Virus record (IMG/VR): IMGVR_UViG_3300027265_000053
Location: 1 to 46,399 of that record
Origin: a virus
Taxonomy: Duplodnaviria; Caudoviricetes
DNA length: 46,399 nt
Strand: one strand, 5' to 3'
Shown: piece by piece, positions 1 through 46,399 of the stretch
Layout: each line of letters opens with the position of its first letter
Numbering within the stretch: the first letter of the stretch is position 1
The notes under the pieces: generated by a model
What the model was told of the DNA's origin: nothing
Database searches by the model: none
The model's input: the letters and a program-made list of their open reading frames with translations, nothing else
Translations under genes and position numbers: made by a program

Positions 1-285
1 TTATACGCACTGGGTCACATCGATGGCGTATACGCTAACGGGCTTGTCGCCAAAATGAGGATGCGTGATCCGCTTCTGTTGTGGGTATCCCGTCCACTTC
101 CTGCGTATTGTCTTCGACTCATCATTTTGCTTCGGATATCCGAGCTTCAAGTGGATTTCGTCGTATTCCGGGCCACGTAAGCGGCGCTCCCAGTAGTCGT
201 TTGCTTGGCGATATTCCTCGGTCTTATCTCCTTTGGCTATTGCATGCCAATATTCGGCCTTTATGTGCAATGTCAAAATACGCAT
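1..285 (-). CDS. ASCH/PUA-like domain protein filling an attC-bounded cassette
   Basis: LTLHIKAEYWHAIAKGDKTEEYR motif (GxKxxEYR); ATG lies inside GTTATGC (282-288) and TAA at 1-3 lies inside an apparent core site. Confidence 0.8.
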   Translation of the reverse strand: MRILTLHIKAEYWHAIAKGDKTEEYRQANDYWERRLRGPEYDEIHLKLGYPKQNDESKTIRRKWTGYPQQKRITHPHFGDKPVSVYAIDVTQCV

Positions 286-371
286 AACTTATAGCTCCAG
301 GCGACGCCATACCGCGTCATAGTTTTGTGGTAAATAATGGGTATGCGTAAAATCGTGTTGAAAAGCCACTT

Positions 372-1649
372 TTACAAATTTTCGGGCTCGTGTTGAAACT
401 CAACACCATAGTTAACAAAAAGATCATCCGGCAAAGCATATTCAATCGTTTTTTCTGCCACGCCATGCTTAAATGGTTTTGGCCTGATTTTGTGCTTTGC
501 ACCGATAAAAAGCACCCTGGCCCTTAATACATCAAAACTGTAACCTCTGCCTTGTCTAGCTATTGATTTAATGTGATTATTGGCCGATTCCGTGTAAGCG
601 TTGGTTACTCGATGATCGAAATAATTGAATACCTCAAAACGCCAGTTATCTACAGCTCGTGTCAGATCAGAAAAATAGCCGCGTATTCCAGAAGGCACGG
701 AGTCTTTCCATCCATTATATACGGCCTCAGCCTCAACCCTGGTTACGCCACTATCCCAAATATCGAAAAATCGCTCTTTAGCGTGATGCAGATCGGCGAG
801 TTCCGGAAAGTTTTCGGTCCAGCCAGATAACAAGAATTCCTGGGTTGCATCCAGATCGCGGCGGCGTCTTAACATCAAATACCGATCTTTCTTAAGCCGC
901 TTGACTTGCTCCTTATCCATTTTGCTACGCAAGTCCTTACGGCCTTTCTCGACCGCCTCGTTCGCCATTTTTACCACATGGAACTTGTCGATCACGACAA
1001 TTGCATGAGGCAGCGCAGCGGCCACAGCATCACGATACGGACGCCACATATCCATCGTTACGATTTTTATTTTTTTTGGTTGTTTGAAGCGATAAAGCGC
1101 GTTAATGACGGCTTTTTTAGTGCGATTGTCAATCATATCAACAATAGTCCGCTCGCTGATGTTGGTCAGCACTAGCCGCATTTCCCGGTTCAAATGCACC
1201 TCATCAATCCCCAGTATTTCCGGCGTTTCAAAAGTGTATTGTTGATTCAGTTTTTCGGTGTAATTCTTAAGGATTCCCCGGATTGATCCTTCGGAAAGTC
1301 CGACATCATGCGCCACACTCACACACGTTTTGATGATCGCCGTTTTTTCAATGTACCTGACTAGGCGCTTTGTAGCGCGATGGCTATCGTCAATATCATC
1401 ACACACCTGGAAAAACGTCTTTTGGCACTGGCGGCACCGGTAGCGCTTACGCTCCAAGAATATTCCGACACGTCGCCCATGAATGGGCGTATCCATGAAT
1501 AACTGAACTTTTTTGCCGTGGCCGTAAATAGCATCATTAGCACAATCAGGGCAGCCCGACGGTTCCGAATTGGCGACCGCATGAATATGATAGTCATGGT
1601 CGCCATTCTCCTCGGTTTTAATCTCGGTTATCGATTCCAGATTGAGCAT
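372..1649 (-). CDS. ISL3-family DDE transposase
   Basis: Zn finger CPDC...RYRCRQC; LGIDE, VTMDMWRPY, VIDKFHVVK, TNAYTESANNHIK motifs. Confidence 0.95.
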   Translation of the reverse strand: MLNLESITEIKTEENGDHDYHIHAVANSEPSGCPDCANDAIYGHGKKVQLFMDTPIHGRRVGIFLERKRYRCRQCQKTFFQVCDDIDDSHRATKRLVRYIEKTAIIKTCVSVAHDVGLSEGSIRGILKNYTEKLNQQYTFETPEILGIDEVHLNREMRLVLTNISERTIVDMIDNRTKKAVINALYRFKQPKKIKIVTMDMWRPYRDAVAAALPHAIVVIDKFHVVKMANEAVEKGRKDLRSKMDKEQVKRLKKDRYLMLRRRRDLDATQEFLLSGWTENFPELADLHHAKERFFDIWDSGVTRVEAEAVYNGWKDSVPSGIRGYFSDLTRAVDNWRFEVFNYFDHRVTNAYTESANNHIKSIARQGRGYSFDVLRARVLFIGAKHKIRPKPFKHGVAEKTIEYALPDDLFVNYGVEFQHEPENL

Positions 1650-1917
1650 TATCGATCTTTAAAATTTGTTCAAAAATATTCGGTAGCGCTGTCATTTTTT
1701 TAGAAAGCACCATTTTGAGTTGTCCGAGAGCTATACAGGTTGCGTCATAATCATCGTGAGATACAGCTTGTTCAAGATCCGCTATCAACTGATTTTGTTC
1801 GCGCACCCACTTATTGAGCCAGCCTTTAATCGTTGCTGCTTTCGATTCTGCCGATTTAGCTCGCTTAAGCCGGTCGTTGATAGGTCGGGTTTGTTTTTTC
1901 ATTACCCGCGCCTTCAT
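1618..1917 (-). CDS. Hypothetical helical protein, ISL3 passenger
   Basis: 99-aa ORF overlapping both neighbours, inside the IRs. Confidence 0.6.
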   Translation of the reverse strand: MKARVMKKQTRPINDRLKRAKSAESKAATIKGWLNKWVREQNQLIADLEQAVSHDDYDATCIALGQLKMVLSKKMTALPNIFEQILKIDNAQSGIDNRD

Positions 1918-2183
1918 TCAATTTTTATCAATTTAAGGCTAACAACATCGCCATCATCATCAATAAACGACACCCCTTTAAACCGGTTCATTTTTGTTAT
2001 TTGCGTGTAGATAACCCCATCACGCTTCAAAACAACTCCACAATCCGACTCTACTAATTCATCAGTGTCCCTTAACACCACCTCGTATTCGGCTAAGTTA
2101 GCGCTGTCAGGATCGACAATATGTATTTCGTGACCGTAATAGTCATACGCATTAAATCCAGTAAATCTAACTAAATTTTTCAT
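1914..2183 (-). CDS. Hypothetical acidic protein, ISL3 passenger
   Basis: 89 aa, GAGG RBS, ATGA overlap with next ORF. Confidence 0.65.
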   Translation of the reverse strand: MKNLVRFTGFNAYDYYGHEIHIVDPDSANLAEYEVVLRDTDELVESDCGVVLKRDGVIYTQITKMNRFKGVSFIDDDGDVVSLKLIKIE

Positions 2184-2245
2184 AATTCCTCACTCCAGTT
2201 AATGGGGTGTAAGGCCGATGCGTTAAGCATCGGCTTGGCTATGTA

Positions 2246-2554
2246 TTAAACCCAAGATTCAATTTCGGCAACGAAATTTCTGTTTTTTTCTATTTGTTCA
2301 GTAGTTGGCAGGTATGGGTTGTTAGCCATATTGGTATCGACAACGATAGATACGTATGCTTTGATCCAAGGTCTATATACCTGTCCTGTTTTGTCGGCTG
2401 GCTCAGTAATATCGCCGGCTACGTTTCTATTCATTGCTAAATATTGTTTTTGCGCGTCGCTGAGTTCGTAAAAATAAATATCGTAATAAATGCAGCCCAT
2501 TTCTTTGTTTTTGCCGAAACGGTTGTCTTTTTTATATATTTCTATTGCTTTCAT
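2246..2554 (-). CDS. Hypothetical protein, ISL3 passenger
   Basis: 102 aa, GAGG RBS, followed by a hairpin at about 2211-2236. Confidence 0.65.
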   Translation of the reverse strand: MKAIEIYKKDNRFGKNKEMGCIYYDIYFYELSDAQKQYLAMNRNVAGDITEPADKTGQVYRPWIKAYVSIVVDTNMANNPYLPTTEQIEKNRNFVAEIESWV

Positions 2555-2737
2555 GATGTCCTCAATCCCGTATAGGGTTTGTGATTAATTTTTACCGGGA
2601 TTCGCCCCGGCGGCTGTGTGGATGTCTTCCACGTTTTTTATTATACAGACATGAAATTGAAAATCAACATGATTTTACGATTTCAACACGATATATTCAA
2701 TTTATTTTCAACACGGTTTTACGTAGACCCTAAATAA

Positions 2738-2965
2738 TTAGCTCTTGAGGCGCGGTACGGCGCTCCTGAGCATGGCGTTGTGCACCTGTTTCGTTTTGAT
2801 TAAAAAAAGCTCCCAATATGCGGCATCCATTTTTCTATCTCCGGCCTCGTATTGTTGCCAGGCCCGGCATCCCTTGTGTATCACCTCTGCGGCTTCCGTT
2901 TGGGTTAAACCCGCGTCCATGCGGGCTTGTTTAATTTGTTCTGTTGTTGGTTTATCCACGGACAT
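2738..2965 (-). CDS. XRE-family HTH regulator
   Basis: IKQARMDAGLTQTEAAEVIHKGCRAWQQYEAGDRKM; C-terminal tail is encoded by the attC arm. Confidence 0.88.
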   Translation of the reverse strand: MSVDKPTTEQIKQARMDAGLTQTEAAEVIHKGCRAWQQYEAGDRKMDAAYWELFLIKTKQVHNAMLRSAVPRLKS

Positions 2966-3152
2966 CGATCACTTCAAAATCGCCATCTGTTACTAACCCA
3001 TCATTTGATCAAAATGCGGGGCTGTAAGTTAATCCGTATTCATCGGTGTCATAACCAATTTCATTAAATTTTGCTTCAATTGATTTGTTGTCATCGCCCT
3101 TTATTTGTGCAACAACTTCTTTTGTATCAACATTATAAATATATGCGTCCAT
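2952..3152 (-). pseudogene. Small acidic ORF with an internal TGA (47 aa, stop, 18 aa)
   Basis: GGAGAG RBS; MDAYIYNVDTKEVVAQ...GLTYSPAF*SNDGLVTDGDFEVIDVRG*; frame continues to overlap the HTH start. Confidence 0.55.
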
Positions 3153-3199
3153 TTTACTCTCCAGTTTATGAGCGGGGAATCCGCTTCACTTGCTAAAAG

Positions 3200-3227
3200 A
3201 TTATACGCGCATTGTTCGTGTTGTCAA
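3200..3227 (-). promoter_or_regulatory. Sigma70 promoter inside a cassette
   Basis: TTGACA-16 nt-TATAAT on the minus strand, both boxes perfect. Confidence 0.75.
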
Positions 3228-3261
3228 ATTTATTTTAATGTAAATTGTGCGTCACTTAAGC

Positions 3262-3351
3262 GCACAACCCATCAATCAACCAGACGCCGTTAATAATCTG
3301 CGTTTCGTTTTTGATGTCGTGGGCGGCGCTGGTTATTTCAGCGCGTTATAC
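3262..3351 (+). repeat. attC-like site B (90 bp)
   Basis: GCACAAC-CCATC-AATCAACC-AGACGCCG...CGGCGCT-GGTTATT-TCAGCGC-GTTATAC; its R'' is the exact complement of the upstream R' GTTGTGC (2777); right spacer is long (7 nt). Confidence 0.8.
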
Positions 3352-3355
3352 GCCA

Positions 3356-3580
3356 TCATGGATATGGGTTTCTTAAGCATCCGTGGGCTACGCATTGCTC
3401 AGGAGATGCGGCCGCACATGGCTCCGAACTAAACCATGTGTGCCCGCACCGGTAACATGCTTCATCTTCTCGCACGGTCGATGCTCCGCATTGCCTGCAT
3501 TTATTGCAATGCACGCATAACTGTACATTCAACTCAGACCCGCCGTTCTCGGCGGTGTCCGTAATCTGCTCAGTATTCAT
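3356..3580 (-). CDS. Small Cys-rich (Zn-ribbon-like) protein starting inside an attC loop
   Basis: CRQCG...CYRCG; GAGG RBS and ATG are within site C. Confidence 0.6.
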   Translation of the reverse strand: MNTEQITDTAENGGSELNVQLCVHCNKCRQCGASTVREDEACYRCGHTWFSSEPCAAASPEQCVAHGCLRNPYP

Positions 3581-3637
3581 AATTCCTCACTTCGTTTAGG
3601 GTTAGTTCCCAGCGGGCTGGTTAATGCGGCGTTATAC
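3515..3637 (+). repeat. attC-like site C (123 bp)
   Basis: GCATAAC-TGTAC-ATTCAACT-CAGACCCGC...GCGGGCTG-GTTAAT-GCGGC-GTTATAC. Confidence 0.8.
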
Positions 3638-3768
3638 GCAGCATCTGATTTTGGCAGCATTCGATTTCTTTCCGATTTTAATTGGTCCTGCCATCTGGCC
3701 ACATTAGCGCTTAGCTTGCTATCAATGTGCGGGAGTTGGTCCAACATTTCGGCGACGGTATCTAGCAA
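3577..3768 (-). CDS. Hypothetical protein, possibly 5'-truncated
   Basis: 63 aa with TTG start; reads into site C and overlaps next start (ATGA). Confidence 0.4.
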   Translation of the reverse strand: MLDTVAEMLDQLPHIDSKLSANVARWQDQLKSERNRMLPKSDAAYNAALTSPLGTNPKRSEEL

Positions 3769-3770
3769 AA

Positions 3771-3789
3771 CCTGATCTAAGCGTTAGAC
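3771..3789 (+). repeat. Half attC-like site D (L'-spacer-R' only)
   Basis: CCTGATC-TAAGC-GTTAGAC; no partner left arm found. Confidence 0.5.
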
Positions 3790-3981
3790 ATAATCGCCAG
3801 GCTGCGGGATGTTCGGATCACCATGAGCAAATCGATAACCCTTCATGAACATTTCGTAGTCACGCCTGTGCTGAATGCTCTTATCAGTTTCAACTTCTCC
3901 GCCAAAAAATCTTAATCTAAATTCACGCGGTGGTGGTGGCGGTGGTTTGTTATGTGATTTCTGTTCCATATATTTCTCCAT
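3784..3981 (-). CDS. Small Pro-rich protein bounded by inverted core sites
   Basis: On the minus strand GTTAGAC-ATG ... ATGTC-TAA-C; 9-bp inverted match GTTAGACAT (3783) / ATGTCTAAC (3980). Confidence 0.65.
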   Translation of the reverse strand: MEKYMEQKSHNKPPPPPPREFRLRFFGGEVETDKSIQHRRDYEMFMKGYRFAHGDPNIPQPGDYV

Positions 3982-3989
3982 GTCTAACT

Positions 3990-5021
3990 CTACTCTTTTC
4001 CAGCCGGCTTAACTTCCGCAAGTTTCCGGTCATACACTTGCATCATCGCATCTGTCTTATGCCCTGATGCTGCCTTTTTATCGCCTTCGGTATCGCTGAC
4101 GCCCTTGGCTTTCAGCTGATGAAATTTAAATCTTGATATATCCATACCCTGGGCTTTGATCATTAATCGCTGCCACGCTGTAGAAAATCCTTCTTCGGTC
4201 AGCGCTGTGCCGTTTACGCCGCGGATCAATGTCGGATTCAGCGGGCGCACTTGCGGGTAGGGTAGGGATCGGCTAAGGGCAATGGCGGCATTAAGCCGGT
4301 CGCTAAAGGTGGTAATGTTGTCTCTGGACCCTTTCCGTCGACGTATATGCAGACCGTTTTCTTTGATGTCGGATTCGCGCAAGGCCATGACCTCACATAC
4401 TCGCATCCGGCATAGGTAGGCAAATTCCATGGCGCATTTAATATAGTCGGGGGCTATGTGGTACACAGCGATGTATTCGGCGTCGGTTACGTAGCGCTTG
4501 TCTGGGGTTTCGGTGTTGCGTCTGACATCTTTGCAGGGGTTTGTTTTTAGCAAATCGCGCTCTATGCAATATTGATAGCAGACCGATAAAAAGGCTTTTT
4601 CTCGGTTCGCGGATACTGCGGCCTCGCGGGCGTCCATATATTTCCTTATGACGCCGGGCGTGATCCGGTCGGCTTCGATGTTGCCGAGCAGTTCGCCTGA
4701 TTTTGTTTGGGTGTTTATGATCTGCTGGGCGCAGCGTTCGTATTGTTTTTTGGTGTGGATCGATTTTGCTGCGTGTTGAGGAGAGGATAAATATTGTTCG
4801 GTCATCCAGGCGACTGTTCTTTTTGGTTTTCCGACTGAGGTTATTTCTTCGTAACGCTTCCAGACTTCGGACAACGGCGCATCGGCAGGGCAGAGTTTGA
4901 TGTATTTGCCAAATTTTCCGGCGCCCAGATGTGCGCGATAAACAAGCATACCACGGCGCACGTAAACGTATTCGGGGAATTGGTGGTTGGTTTTTCTTTT
5001 TCTGCCCACTTTAAAACTCAA
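3990..5021 (-). CDS. int: Phage tyrosine recombinase (integrase)
   Basis: SANREKAFLS core-binding region; catalytic R (CRMRVCEV), K (RRKG), HQLK, SGH, Y (QVYDR). Confidence 0.92.
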   Translation of the reverse strand: MSFKVGRKRKTNHQFPEYVYVRRGMLVYRAHLGAGKFGKYIKLCPADAPLSEVWKRYEEITSVGKPKRTVAWMTEQYLSSPQHAAKSIHTKKQYERCAQQIINTQTKSGELLGNIEADRITPGVIRKYMDAREAAVSANREKAFLSVCYQYCIERDLLKTNPCKDVRRNTETPDKRYVTDAEYIAVYHIAPDYIKCAMEFAYLCRMRVCEVMALRESDIKENGLHIRRRKGSRDNITTFSDRLNAAIALSRSLPYPQVRPLNPTLIRGVNGTALTEEGFSTAWQRLMIKAQGMDISRFKFHQLKAKGVSDTEGDKKAASGHKTDAMMQVYDRKLAEVKPAGKE

Positions 5022-6096: not shown

Positions 6097-6522
6097 CTAA
6101 TCCGGAAGTTTTGATAGCTGAAAGTGCATGCCGTCTTTCAGTGTCCAGTTACCGCCCCAGTCGAATCCTGCGTCGGTAAAGCAGGCGACCAGTTGCGGGG
6201 TCATGTTCGGCTTTTTTCCGTATCCGTTCCATGCGGCATTGATGTCGATGGCTACGCCCCAGCTGTGCAATGATGGTGTTGTGCCCTGCACTTTTCGGCG
6301 GATGTTAAAGCAGCCGTCAAAGGTTCGTAGCTGATTGATCAGGCCGCGGTCGATAATGTTGGAAAAAGCGATTTGCAATGGTGCCACTATATCGCGGTTG
6401 CAATACAGGCGCTTGGGTATTACGCCAAGCTCTAAATGCGCAGGAATGTCCCATAAGACCATGTGTTTTTGATCTTCCGGATTGCCGTATTTTGCTTGGC
6501 AGGCTTTATGCGAAACTGTCAT
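6097..6522 (-). CDS. M15-family Zn peptidase (L-Ala-D-Glu-type endolysin candidate)
   Basis: GCFNIR...SLHSWGVAIDIN...FDWGGNW...DGMHFQ. Confidence 0.9.
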   Translation of the reverse strand: MTVSHKACQAKYGNPEDQKHMVLWDIPAHLELGVIPKRLYCNRDIVAPLQIAFSNIIDRGLINQLRTFDGCFNIRRKVQGTTPSLHSWGVAIDINAAWNGYGKKPNMTPQLVACFTDAGFDWGGNWTLKDGMHFQLSKLPD

Positions 6523-9152: not shown

Positions 9153-9620
9153 CTATGCAAGATGTTCAAATATTTTTTCAGAGCACTTGAGCGGGATGAG
9201 CTGGTCATCTCTATTGAATTCGTGCATAACGTCATTGTAGGCAATGCTTCTTAGTAGTTCGATTTCTTGCGTATCGCTTTGCCTAGCCTCCTCAATAGCA
9301 ACCTCAAGCTCGGCTTCATTAAGCGCGTTTGACTTGACCATCAGTGCTTGATAGCGTCTTACATCCGATTCATTTAGTGCTGCTTTGTCACCCGGTCTGG
9401 CGGCAATAAACATTGCGCCTGAGCAGGCTAATAATCCTGCTCCTGCAAACGAGAGCCAGTCAGGTAAGGCAGTTAAGTAAATTGAAAACGTAGCGCTACC
9501 GCCGACAATGGATAAAAATACACCTGTCGCCTGAAGACGCCTATAAAGCCTTGCTTGCCGCTGGCATAACCGGATGGCATAGCGGATTTCGCCCTTTAGC
9601 TGGTCTTTTGTTTTGTTCAT
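9153..9620 (-). CDS. 2TM SLATT-like membrane protein (module B)
   Basis: N-terminal helix, two TM segments (FLSIVGGSATF; FAGAGLLACSGAMFI), C-terminal helices. Confidence 0.7.
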   Translation of the reverse strand: MNKTKDQLKGEIRYAIRLCQRQARLYRRLQATGVFLSIVGGSATFSIYLTALPDWLSFAGAGLLACSGAMFIAARPGDKAALNESDVRRYQALMVKSNALNEAELEVAIEEARQSDTQEIELLRSIAYNDVMHEFNRDDQLIPLKCSEKIFEHLA

Positions 9621-9820: not shown

Positions 9821-10324
9821 TTACGGTACTAATAGCGGCGGGGAATGACGGCTAAAAATATTGAGTTTGATTTCTGCTGTTCCTCCCAATGCTTCTACTG
9901 CGCGTTCATAGCAGCGTTCGAATAGGATGCGGTGGGCGGCAGGCTCGCCCGCTTCAATGTCATTGGCTCGGGCAAACCATTGGTTGATAAGGTCTTCGGT
10001 AAATCCTCGTTCGCCGACTTGTTCGATGTCGCGCTCCAGTTGCGCCCATTCGGCGCTACGCTTTACGCTGTCTCTGGCTTTGTTGCCGTAGCCAAATACT
10101 AAGGATGCGGTGCTGGCTGCGGTAATAAAGGCGGCGCACCATTGGATGATTTCCGGGCTTGAGATTTTGGCGAAGGCTATGGAGCCTGCCAGTATTGATG
10201 CGGCCTTAATAAAGCTTTCCCGTCGTTCGAATATGCTTTGGCGTTCCTGGTAATAAATGCGGTTGGTCAGGGCGCGGACTTTAATATCGTAGCGACGTTG
10301 CCAAAGGTATTCGGTGTCGGTCAT
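9821..10324 (-). CDS. 2TM SLATT-like membrane protein (module A)
   Basis: YYQERQSIFERR-TM(AASILAGSIAF)-TM(AAFITAASTASLVFGY)-KARD...WAQLE. Confidence 0.75.
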   Translation of the reverse strand: MTDTEYLWQRRYDIKVRALTNRIYYQERQSIFERRESFIKAASILAGSIAFAKISSPEIIQWCAAFITAASTASLVFGYGNKARDSVKRSAEWAQLERDIEQVGERGFTEDLINQWFARANDIEAGEPAAHRILFERCYERAVEALGGTAEIKLNIFSRHSPPLLVP

Positions 10325-19030: not shown

Positions 19031-19119
19031 AGCTCGCCTGGATTTATTCAGCGGGCTTTTTTTATGTCTATTACTTTCTTTGGCCTGCTCTGGCTTTCGT
19101 CCGGTGCGGGTTTTTTTGT
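19031..19119 (+). terminator. Tandem terminators tR'
   Basis: GCTCGC..GCGGGC-T7 (19032-19063) and CCTGC..GCGGG-T7 (19084-19117). Confidence 0.7.
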
Positions 19120-19141
19120 GCCCAATACACGGAGTTTGTTT

Positions 19142-19495
19142 ATGCCAGAGCAGTCGGTTGGGTATTTAAAATCGATCCTGGATAGCGGCACTTGTTATGT
19201 GTTGTTTGTGTTGATGTCTGTTTGGGGCGGCACTGCGGCTTATATCAGTCGGCTTAAACGGTCAGGGCGGATTTTTTCTTTGGTCGAGTTGATTGGCGAG
19301 TGGTCGATTAGTGGTTTCTCCGGCATTGTTACTGGGTTTATCTGTCATGCCTATGGCGTCGATTATTATATTACGTTGGCGGCGGTCGGCATTAGTGGGC
19401 ATATGGGTGGTCGGCTTATTTTTATAGTTGAGCGTTTTGGACAGCGGTATGTTGAGTCTAAGCTGGGTATTAAGCTAGGCTCGATTGATGAGTAG
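19142..19495 (+). CDS. Holin (LydA-like, 3 TM)
   Basis: VWGGTAAYISRLK...FSLVELIGEWSISGFSG...AAVGISGHMG. Confidence 0.85.
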   Translation: MPEQSVGYLKSILDSGTCYVLFVLMSVWGGTAAYISRLKRSGRIFSLVELIGEWSISGFSGIVTGFICHAYGVDYYITLAAVGISGHMGGRLIFIVERFGQRYVESKLGIKLGSIDE

Positions 19496-41088: not shown

Positions 41089-41133
41089 CTGTTAATCATT
41101 AGGTCGGCGGTTCGAGCCCGTCCGGGGGAGCCA
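41089..41133 (+). other. Prophage att core: 3' half of tRNA-Asn(GTT)
   Basis: CT-GTT-AA-TCATT-AGGTC-GGCGG-TTCGAGC-CCGTC-CGGGGGA-G-CCA with no 5' half; IHF-like AATCAATAACTTA at 41014-41026. Confidence 0.85.
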
Positions 41134-41141
41134 GATAAAAG

Positions 41142-43541: not shown

Positions 43542-43631
43542 ATTCAACGTAGAGCTAACCGGCCGCGGCCCGGAAAGCTGAAAAAACAAAACCGCATTGT
43601 AACCGCGCTCCGGTTGAGCGCCATGTTAGAC
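43542..43631 (-). repeat. Host integron attC site 1
   Basis: Minus strand GTCTAAC-ATGGC-GCTCAACC-GGAGCGCGG...CCGCGGCC-GGTTAGC-TCTAC-GTTGAAT; upstream gene stop lies inside R''. Confidence 0.92.
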
Positions 43632-45110
43632 AGCCTCGCACAAAGTACGGCGATAGGTATAGCGTTCAGCCATGAAATACCCAAGAGCCGCTATACAAAC
43701 GAAAACACTCCCAATGGCGGTGAAATCTTGATGTTTCATAGTGGTAAAAAGCAGAGTCCCCCAAGAACCGAATACCAAGATTGCCATAACAACTTGAACA
43801 TTCTGGCTAGAAACGATACTTGCACCATGGCGTGCAGAATAATACGCACTTATTGCAAATATAGGCGCACTAATTGTTAATGGCCAAACCACCGTTAGAG
43901 CCAGTGGAATGAACGCGACATCTGCTTGGTAAAACAAGTATGTTAAGAAGAATATAAAGATACCAATTACTAATGTTCCAATCCTCGCTAGAAAAACATT
44001 TTGAGTGGATGTTGTTTCAATAAAAGTTATCCCTGGATTATACAGTTCCCAAAGTGCTTGCTGTACAACAACGATAGTGCCATCCAGTGTTGATAGTTGC
44101 AAAGCCACAAAACCTGCTACAACGAGAACAGAAAATACGACAAAGATTCCTCCTGCATTTGATAGACTATTTAAGATAGTAGATATTGTGTTACCCATGT
44201 TTGATTGGTAGTACGGTGCAGAAATTATACCTATAACAGCAAATAGAAGCAGACTTACAGCAATGAATCCACCGCTTTTCAGAAAAACTTTTACTTTTAC
44301 TGATGCATCGTAGTTTGTAGAAATCGATACGTTTAGTGCGCTGTAAAACTGAGTCATAACCGCATTGACTATTACCGAGAATGCTATCATCACGAGTTCG
44401 AAAAAAGTTAAACTGTTTTTTGCGGCATCAGGTGTTATTGCTTGTTGATGGAGTTCAACTGAAGACGGGAATAGAAGTAAAACAATAAGTAACGCAATTA
44501 TCGATAAGACTATAAATACTGCTTGTACTAAGTCTGTTCCAATCGCTGCCCGGATTCCACCAGACCAAGTGTAGAAGATTGCAACCGCCAATAAGGTAAA
44601 TGCCACTCCCAAAGGCGTAACCCATGTTTCGCCAGTTTCAGGAGTTGTCAGTGCTATATACAATTGCGATGATGCATAGAGTTCGAAAGCACACAATAAT
44701 AGATAAACAATTGCCTGCATTATTACGTAGGCATTAATCACACGTACAGTCGCTCGGTTATTGGTTTCGTTTGTAGTGTTGCGGATAAAGTCTAGGTATG
44801 AGTGGCAACGATTATTGGAATCAAAGTATTTTTTTAGAAGGTTCGTGTAGAGTGCCAAAATCCCATACCCGATAAAAACACTGAATGGTGCAAGTATGGC
44901 GAAAAATGGATTTTTGACTGCTAACTCAGAGATATACAAAAGTCCAGTTCCTAGCGTCAGACTACCAAGTACGAGGACAACTATTCCGTTCCTTTCGCGG
45001 CGAGTGTGGAAATAGTCGAATTGTGACTTAATGCCTGTATAAGTCATTGACGCAATGCCACCATAGACAGCGCATGAAATTATGAAAGCAGCAAAAGATG
45101 CACCAAACAT
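43626..45110 (-). CDS. Multi-pass membrane protein, Na+/solute symporter-like, cassette-borne
   Basis: About 13 TM segments; YTWSGGIRAAIGTDLVQ and LSTLDG motifs. Confidence 0.8.
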   Translation of the reverse strand: MFGASFAAFIISCAVYGGIASMTYTGIKSQFDYFHTRRERNGIVVLVLGSLTLGTGLLYISELAVKNPFFAILAPFSVFIGYGILALYTNLLKKYFDSNNRCHSYLDFIRNTTNETNNRATVRVINAYVIMQAIVYLLLCAFELYASSQLYIALTTPETGETWVTPLGVAFTLLAVAIFYTWSGGIRAAIGTDLVQAVFIVLSIIALLIVLLLFPSSVELHQQAITPDAAKNSLTFFELVMIAFSVIVNAVMTQFYSALNVSISTNYDASVKVKVFLKSGGFIAVSLLLFAVIGIISAPYYQSNMGNTISTILNSLSNAGGIFVVFSVLVVAGFVALQLSTLDGTIVVVQQALWELYNPGITFIETTSTQNVFLARIGTLVIGIFIFFLTYLFYQADVAFIPLALTVVWPLTISAPIFAISAYYSARHGASIVSSQNVQVVMAILVFGSWGTLLFTTMKHQDFTAIGSVFVCIAALGYFMAERYTYRRTLCEAV

Positions 45111-45308
45111 GATTATTACCTTAGGTATATGCTATGGCTAGGAGAACAACGTAATTTTCGCTCGGAGACGAAAAGCACCAAAATATGAGCATATCCCGTG
45201 GCAAATAAAATCCCAAAGCTCCAGCTTGTAAGGTGTGGTCAAGTACGAATGCATGGATGTGTGATTCGGAGGATAGGTGATCTAACATCTTTTTAACTCC
45301 TTATTTGA

Positions 45309-45941
45309 TTAGTATTCTGGTTGGCGGATATATGGCTTAATAATGTACAAAAACTCAATGACTGCACCAAGTGCGGTGAGGGCTGCGATCAGAATTAGTG
45401 CCGTTACTGCAAATGCAGCTGAGATCGGTTCAAGTAAGAGCAATGCAAAGGACAGAAATGGAAGTAACAGATACGTATATTTTTGCTGAGCGGTAAACGG
45501 TAGCGCCGCTGAGTTCAACACAATTATCCATATTGCAAACGCGCTTGTGAGTAAAAAGTAAAATGTAAATAGTGACTTGTAGTCGCTCCATTGTATTATT
45601 TTTAGAGTGATTATGGTCACGATTACTACACGCGAAAAATATTCAAATAACCGCCACGCCTTCCCTTTACGTTCTAGGTCAGGTATCTCGTTATTGTGTT
45701 CAAATAGTTCCAGCCTGAAATAAAGAATCAATACGAAAAATCCAACAGCGGTTGTGAAGATATTCAAACTCCACTTTGCATATATTTGATCTGCATGGTT
45801 TGGGAACGAAGTAATAAAATGAGATGGTAGATCATCTGCCCAAAATGCAAATACAGCTTTCGTAATGGCAAACAAGAAAGCGACACCATACACCAATGGG
45901 AATGCCGACCAAATATTGTTATTCGAATGCTTCGTAGTCAT
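45309..45941 (-). CDS. Hypothetical multi-TM protein, cassette-borne
   Basis: About 6 hydrophobic segments, AT-rich. Confidence 0.7.
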   Translation of the reverse strand: MTTKHSNNNIWSAFPLVYGVAFLFAITKAVFAFWADDLPSHFITSFPNHADQIYAKWSLNIFTTAVGFFVLILYFRLELFEHNNEIPDLERKGKAWRLFEYFSRVVIVTIITLKIIQWSDYKSLFTFYFLLTSAFAIWIIVLNSAALPFTAQQKYTYLLLPFLSFALLLLEPISAAFAVTALILIAALTALGAVIEFLYIIKPYIRQPEY

Positions 45942-45969
45942 CGGATACCTTGGCTCATACACTGAGGCT

Positions 45970-46052
45970 GTCTAACGTAGAGCTAACCGGGCGCGGCACG
46001 AAAGCTGAAAAGCAAAACCGGATTATAACCGCGCTCCGGTTGAGCACCATGT
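45970..46052 (-). repeat. Host integron attC site 2, interrupted by the intron
   Basis: Near-identical to site 1; similarity stops at CCATGT. Confidence 0.9.
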
Positions 46053-46399
46053 GTACGCCCGACATGGGCATTAACTAATGAGGTGAAAGTCCTCTGTAGG
46101 AGAATCACCGTCGAAAACCCTGTTGTTATTAGACGATAACTACTAGCGAATGGCAAGGGCTGATCCGTGAGGAGAGGTCCGGAGGAAGCCGGACGCAAAA
46201 CTGCGAGCTGATGAACAAAAACATCATACGAGGCATAGGCTGGAGGCGAGTTGGCACATGACGACGAAGCCAGGTGATTTAACGGCCACTGTAAATGATG
46301 CAGTTGTGCAGGGAAAGTTAATGTTCTTATTCGGGGAGATCTGCTTAACGAGCGATCGGAAGAATACCAGATCGGACGACTGGTTGAACAAAAGTCCAG
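46053..46399 (+). mobile_element. 5' part of a class C (IIC-attC) group II intron, cut by the window edge
   Basis: Starts GTACGCCCGACATGGGC...GAGGTGAAAGTCCTC; inserted after the attC stem at CATGT|, antisense to the cassette genes; RT ORF not in window. Confidence 0.85.

Follow-up and report, generated by a model that had tools for sequence, protein, structure and literature searches.

Integrons are regarded as bacterial devices, in which the choice of strand orients cassette genes behind the cassette promoter (Pc). Lately they have been viewed as anti-phage gene stores (bioRxiv 2024.07.02.601686), and phages are described as carrying attC clusters without an integron integrase (CALINs): 17 phage CALINs were reported in 10,705 genomes, and phage attC bottom strands, including one of phage PH101, recombine with IntI1 (PMC9892861). 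Here we analyse a stretch of 46,399 nucleotides (the window), IMG/VR virus record IMGVR_UViG_3300027265_000053, whose first 3,988 positions hold an array of attC sites beside a phage integrase gene. It shares with the published phage clusters the absence of intI, and a cargo of small hypothetical genes and methyltransferases. In the sections of PMC9892861 considered here, there is no description of antisense open reading frames (ORFs), of a recurring host-like attI without intI or of reordering between phages; the words 'antisense' and 'opposite' have 0 occurrences in its text. Full-text literature searches, whose coverage of subscription journals is thin, returned no paper on reversed, attI-anchored phage arrays. 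Phage CALINs and the activity of IntI1 on their attC sites are already published, and the reversed, attI-anchored design is, as far as these searches reach, the new part. We read the locus as an integrase-less, integron-type cassette array of a prophage, with genes antisense to attC, that is likely rearranged by a host IntI acting in trans; we give this reading a probability of roughly 80%.

Two further systems stand close to it. The sedentary chromosomal integrons of the Methylobacter-containing family (L319 and L355-L374; L numbers designate the loci compared) have the same attC families, attI motif and crossover point as the phage array. They differ in possessing intI and in carrying their cassettes in sense (42 of 46 callable units); the phage array lacks both, and its entry site lies distal to the promoter. 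Insertion at attG sites likewise has IntI placing cassettes away from the integron (bioRxiv 10.1101/2022.09.11.507474); unlike there, a conserved attI-like site here anchors multi-cassette arrays with phage-type cargo.

The original prediction had listed three complete attC-like sites, a half site and lone core sites, all of which are present:

1-6, + strand: lone core G|TTATAC at the array entry, its G one base left of the window
282-330, + strand: left arm of attC 1 (R'', and L'' with the extra C)
2739-2783, + strand: right arm of attC 1 (L' and R'; crossover G|TT at 2777/2778)
3262-3351, + strand: attC 2, intact, with an atypical 7-nt spacer between L' and R' (36.3 bits; folding probability 1.3e-4)
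3515-3637, + strand: attC 3, intact (35.5 bits; folding probability 0.14)
3739-3789, + strand: attC 4, degenerate (16.3 bits, E 0.09), well formed only in the L'-R' arm at 3771-3789, the half site
3982-3988, + strand: lone R'' core, the remainder of its attC gone, with the integrase stop next to it; half sites stand at the same place in L081 and L118

The attC architecture R''-L''...L'-R', with its extrahelical base and unpaired spacer, is present, the spacer of site 2 measuring 7 nt. Site 1 (282-2783) reads GCATAAC-5-GCTCCAGG...CCTGAGC-5-GTTGTGC and is 102 nt long without an ISL3-family insertion sequence (IS) and one copy of its 8-bp duplication; the phage locus L375 has a homologue of 100 nt with no interruption, which confirms this IS-split reading. 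A strict scan gave 3 hits in the 1,590-nt region without the IS and 0 hits in the other 37 kb of the prophage. Since 0 of 1,000 dinucleotide shuffles reached even two hits, the three sites are not a matter of chance. In line with the check proposed originally, we also ran an attC covariance model, training it on 84 attC sites from host chromosomal integrons only; these were chosen with our own scanner, which makes the model independent as to sequence though not as to concept. It matches both intact sites (3262-3351 and 3515-3637) on the + strand, each with an E of about 1e-6. Flanking cores had been described as mutually complementary, and so they are, except that the unit at 3631-3745 has two mismatches. 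The phage sites had further been called unlike the two host sites in the window. Pairwise this holds, but they fit the host-only model, and relatives carry attC sites of the family of these two host sites, among them 1545-1634 in the related prophage L118 (70 bits).

By definition the array is a CALIN. Sites 3262-3351 and 3515-3637 provide the two or more attC sites within about 3 kb that PMC9892861 uses as its measure, and the one tyrosine recombinase among the 65 ORFs of the window is not an IntI. It probably works like an integron array, and it constitutes neither a complete integron nor a set of classical cassettes: an IntI search of the source contig L082 gave no hit; there is no Pc to drive the genes from the attI side, towards which they point (the promoter scan did not extend beyond position 1 to the left); and all array ORFs are on the bottom strand rather than on the top strand and ending at their own attC. 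The genes and elements are as follows:

1-285, − strand: cassette 1 ORF, 94 aa, phrog_625, with a predicted ASCH-like fold; its ATG lies in one core and its stop in the other
339-2730, − strand: ISL3-family element in the loop of attC 1, with an 8-bp target duplication (331-338 and 2731-2738)
372-1649, − strand: ISL3 transposase
2738-2965, − strand: cassette 2 gene with a weak MqsA-type helix-turn-helix (HTH) match, 75 aa; it crosses the junction and has its stop in attC 1
2952-3152, − strand: small ORF of cassette 2, with an in-frame TGA at 3009-3011 (47 aa, then 18 further codons), probably a pseudogene
3200-3227, − strand: predicted sigma-70-type promoter within cassette 2 (consensus 12/12)
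3356-3580, − strand: cassette 3 ORF, 74 aa, cysteine-rich; its start lies in the loop of attC 3 behind GAGGA (one homologue, 53%)
3577-3768, − strand: unit 4, a family-less open frame in a 115-nt unit, probably a deletion remnant
3784-3981, − strand: unit 5 ORF, 65 aa, of no family, flanked by 9-bp complementary cores
3990-5021, − strand: phage tyrosine integrase (22 bits, against an IntI cut-off of 265)

The decisive feature, missed by the original prediction, is polarity. The extra C of the attC sites is on the + strand and every ORF on the − strand; the genes are antisense to attC, and the attC belonging to each ORF lies upstream of it on the coding strand. To place this in a wider sample, viral contigs were scanned for a 15-nt attC motif, which yielded 78 loci (not necessarily all phages of Methylococcales), from which five duplicates were removed; none has an IntI within reach of its array. 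A test of how well ORFs fit the unit boundaries called 50 of their 89 units antisense and 5 sense, leaving 34 without a single fitting ORF, and 24 of the 25 loci with a call were antisense (one antisense unit, in L312, duplicates L269). The same test on host integrons (20 loci, 66 units) called 42 units sense and 4 antisense, with 20 uncalled. Together with family matches it replaces an earlier, crude longest-ORF test (54 antisense, 20 sense, 27 ties). PHROG families were matched by 16 of 54 bottom-strand ORFs in phage loci, against 1 of 51 top-strand ORFs, and by 9 of 42 host sense ORFs; the matched phage cargo includes methyltransferases, Lar-like proteins and a DHH phosphoesterase. In seven related loci, all 26 model hits with E<1e-4 lie on the strand opposite to the matched gene. 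Among the phages of PMC9892861 that we checked, TJE1 is sense, and the annotated genes of PH101 are on the bottom strand, though unannotated starts exist on the opposite one.

We considered that attC might be a general source of ribosome-binding sites or start codons, and rejected the idea: the corresponding words occur in 11 of 146 phage and 10 of 84 host sites. Cores containing ATG number 21 of 146 in phages and 10 of 84 in hosts. A translation signal within attC nonetheless holds for two ORFs of this array. Three other loci show peculiarities of their own. At 893-1647 of L084, small genes and a promoter-like stretch seem to run opposite to the neighbouring methyltransferase cassettes, the antisense call there coming from a doubtful frame. 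L248 has two attI-like sites, at 493 and 1754, and a sense unit, possibly captured host integron DNA. PH101 (L465, 490-2558) has four attC hits with duplicated flanks and possible unannotated top-strand genes.

Comparison of related prophages, as proposed originally, placed the breakpoints of gene gain and loss at the core sites, with the crossover at G|TT of R'. In L375, cassette 1 is found again among other neighbours, its protein 88% identical. At the upstream (5') AA|C, identity to L375 goes from 20/60 before to 26/30 after the junction; at the downstream (3') AA|C it falls from 48/60 to 18/60. L081 and L118 occupy the same tRNA-Asn site and have integrases 94% and 88% identical to that of the window, and their units differ; the one unit that they share begins with the same attC arm and diverges at CCTAA|C. 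Reordering is seen between L269, with the order C-B-A, and L297, with C-x-A-B: units are 98-99.7% identical and all breaks fall at TAA|C. From these comparisons it follows that each gene moves together with the attC that precedes it on the coding strand, the top-strand crossover being G|TT of R'. On the coding strand the mobile unit is C-[attC bottom strand]-core-ORF-stop-TAA. Judged from these alignments, this is ordinary IntI geometry with a reversed gene. No unit was common to phage and host among the units compared, a small sample.

Relatives of the cargo point to an origin in plain phage genes. Searched across 346 family genomes, the cassette 1 ORF gave no match with the query used, and of 80 related phage loci for its gene, the 79 other than L375 (52-56% identity) have no attC; a plain phage gene therefore became a cassette, in either polarity. 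Of seven HTH relatives scanned, only that in L461 has attC nearby. A search for relatives of ORF 3784-3981 found none. At 2488-2609 of L461, a 34-codon piece of the HTH gene lies between two AAC junctions, without an attC of its own and with the same end core, and corresponds to a deleted cassette.

The array is phage DNA. The window comprises a 41-kb prophage with contractile-tail genes and 5 kb of host DNA. L082, whose integrase is 100% identical, extends further to the left, and there we located the intact tRNA-Asn that the original prediction had proposed to look for. The left copy of the 46-bp att core (attL) has its end 155 bp before position 1 and does not lie between position 3988 and the integrase gene, the outcome that would have made the array host DNA. 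The second copy marks the other end:

41089-41134, + strand: att core, 46 bp, the 3' part of tRNA-Asn, at the right end of the prophage

Given these two positions, the array at 1-3988 lies within the prophage, between the integrase stop and attL, which rules out host DNA outside attL. The bacterial host is probably methane-oxidising; a flank gene shares 89% identity with a gene of G001, the genome from which the Methylobacter record L234 comes, which suggests that the host is Methylobacter-like.

Its own integron array was correctly predicted 2.4 kb to the right of the prophage, and both sites are recognized by the model:

43542-43631, − strand: host attC of classical polarity, closing the sense ORF 43626-45110 (65 bits)
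45970-46058, − strand: host attC interrupted by a group II intron that extends to the window end (48 bits)

This host array has the classical layout, its ORFs sharing a strand with the extra C. The intron (46051-46399, with Rfam RF02001 at 46161-46325) sits in the core of the host attC and presumably resembles the group IIC-attC introns. Within 45110-45970, about 200 bp without a long ORF separate the host ORFs 43626-45110 and 45309-45962; core-like sequence is found there, and no complete attC hit.

At its left end the array begins with an entry site made of the core at 1-6 and an attI-like sequence immediately beyond the window edge (L082, 15022-15065, − strand). A motif is common to the host attI sites that accompany intI, and the entry site of the window aligns without gaps to host and phage attI; an earlier idea of a longer spacer was wrong in view of this alignment. 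In L234, the terminal sequence of the prophage array scores 27 bits on the host-only matrix and is almost the same as the attI that its own host genome has next to intI. In a leave-one-out ranking of array ends picked by position (L081, L084, L086, L118, L234 and L461), all six rank first among the GTT sites of their locus. Eight further array ends were chosen with the matrix, which makes their ranks partly circular. On sequence grounds the entry site of the window is attI-like, if divergent. Arrays start at the attI-like site at the end farthest from the phage early promoter; since the genes point towards attI, a Pc could not express them. Next to the integrase stop, at the far end of the array, the attC is gone in this copy, and half of it is kept in L081 and L118. 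At 15022-15085 of L082, two copies of a short palindromic element are arranged in inverted orientation, of which L081 and L118 have one.

The enzyme is most probably supplied by the host. The phage integrase, as its alignment score indicates, is not an IntI; single-protein scans for it found nothing. IntI occurs in 80 of 151 genomes of the Methylobacter-containing family. Of the originally predicted shufflable array recombined in trans by a host IntI, four elements have gained support, namely phage DNA, fit to the attC model, variation at core sites and a phage integrase other than IntI, which together make it the best reading; set against it is the decay of this copy. As no IntI is reachable in the assembly, its action in trans is something we infer. 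Host IntI would fold and cut the bottom strand as usual, excise units as circles and insert them at phage attI or attC sites. The genes would be expressed from the phage leftward transcript or from a promoter of their own, not from Pc; the original assignment of the whole array to the early-left transcript was overstated, one unit having its own promoter.

Several observations weigh against this interpretation, most of them on the state of this copy. The IS splits attC 1, and truncation has affected two attC sites; one ORF is broken by a stop codon within it, while that of the HTH protein takes its stop from the neighbouring attC. The bottom-strand folding probability is 0.26 for site 1 with the IS left out, 1.3e-4 for site 2 and 0.14 for site 3, with medians of 0.38 over 143 phage sites and 0.30 over 84 host sites; attC 2 thus folds poorly, and for sites 2 and 3 the recombinogenic fold is not the minimum-energy structure. 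For comparison, sites above 0.1 are described as recombining well, and a pair at 3e-3 and 8e-6 as yielding no excision (PMC5371416). Among the 764 GTT sites of L082 the entry site comes no higher than third, and it reaches 1.4 bits on the host-only matrix. The contig ends in the group II intron inside the host array, so that no intI is reachable. Five phage units, and phage TJE1, are sense. Arrays are patchy, being present in 5 of 12 loci with an integrase of at least 57% identity (many on short contigs) and within 1.5 kb in only 1 of 30 family-genome loci. Two DNA runs, probably of the source sample, contained no excision joints. This copy of the array is probably partly frozen, and L001, L375, L269 and L297 are better test objects.

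Decay is also what a relic would display, in which integron pieces were acquired once and have since varied by homologous or illegitimate recombination of similar hairpins, without IntI. The attC families do share sequence, and off-target recombination has been raised as the route by which such sites entered phages (PMC9892861). A relic is nevertheless improbable: near-identical cassettes are reordered, the breaks are at TAA|C and have nothing but the core in common across them, the folding probabilities of the 143 phage sites match those of the 84 host sites, and a captured host fragment would retain sense ORFs. The adjacent integrase, or another phage enzyme, could be thought to recombine the sites instead, given that the array directly adjoins the integrase stop in the window, L001, L081 and L118 and flanks the integrase in L084, L086 and L234. 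With an integrase scoring 22 bits against the IntI cut-off of 265, a weak similarity, we hold this to be very unlikely; the position of the array varies, being downstream of the integrase in the window, L001, L081 and L118, upstream of it in L084 and L086, and between xis and int in L234. An array is absent from most loci of this integrase family, and both the attC sites and the entry site belong to the host type.

The divergence of the entry site in the window, with a core only one base behind the integrase stop, would also suit a locus without a true attI, where IntI inserted cassettes at secondary GTT (attG-type) sites in a non-essential gap beside the integrase; attG insertion is described as efficient (bioRxiv 2022.09.11.507474). 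Yet three prophages integrated at this tRNA agree in entry position and motif, the attI of L234 is complete and host-like, and host cassettes at secondary sites would not yield antisense ORFs with phage-type cargo, leaving little room for this possibility. Finally, the HTH gene has its stop inside the downstream attC, as is often seen in sense cassettes, which might suggest that the units have the ordinary order of ORF and then attC, that their hairpin is mirrored and that they are recombined through the other strand. That is hardly credible, as the upstream attC travels with the gene in three independent comparisons and ORF 3356-3580 starts within its upstream attC.

If host IntI does rearrange the reversed array, the polarity may serve the phage. 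Host cassettes arriving at the phage attI would face against the phage transcript, and phage cassettes in the host integron against Pc. Because many chromosomal cassettes are described as anti-phage (bioRxiv 2024.07.02.601686), reversed polarity would then separate phage and host pools. Genes co-oriented with the fork would place the bottom strand on the lagging-strand template, a position that favours recombination (PMC5371416); a replication origin was looked for and none located, so the argument for this array is inference only. IntI expression and prophage induction share the SOS trigger (PMC9892861). We lean slightly towards a general scheme in which phages with a copy of the host attI and a private, reverse-polarity pool of ordinary phage genes use host IntI, the enzyme by which hosts stock genes against phages, for reshuffling, incoming host cassettes staying silent. 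If true, an opposite-polarity phage pool would mean that the same enzyme serves the phage, and would be a site-specific route to phage mosaicism. It would also bear on how cassettes, whose origin is called largely unknown (PMC5371416), are made, here from a plain phage gene, and some 'antisense' or 'empty' cassettes of environmental surveys would come from phages.

Further features were noted in the window and in related arrays. The 2.4-kb ISL3 element has three extra ORFs of no known family upstream of its transposase (1618-1917, 1914-2183 and 2246-2554). An M15 peptidase with an endolysin-type domain (6097-6522) stands amid the early leftward genes, distant from the holin (19064-19495), and the early region has two tandem ORFs, 9153-9620 and 9821-10324, both of phrog_11791, a family of no known function. 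L084 has a further attC of the same polarity (4345-4467) past a tRNA-derived att fragment, perhaps belonging to a second tandem element. In L001, at least 10 model hits run downstream of the integrase to the contig end (11050-15657); several of these units are ORF-poor, and one has its own promoter and two genes.

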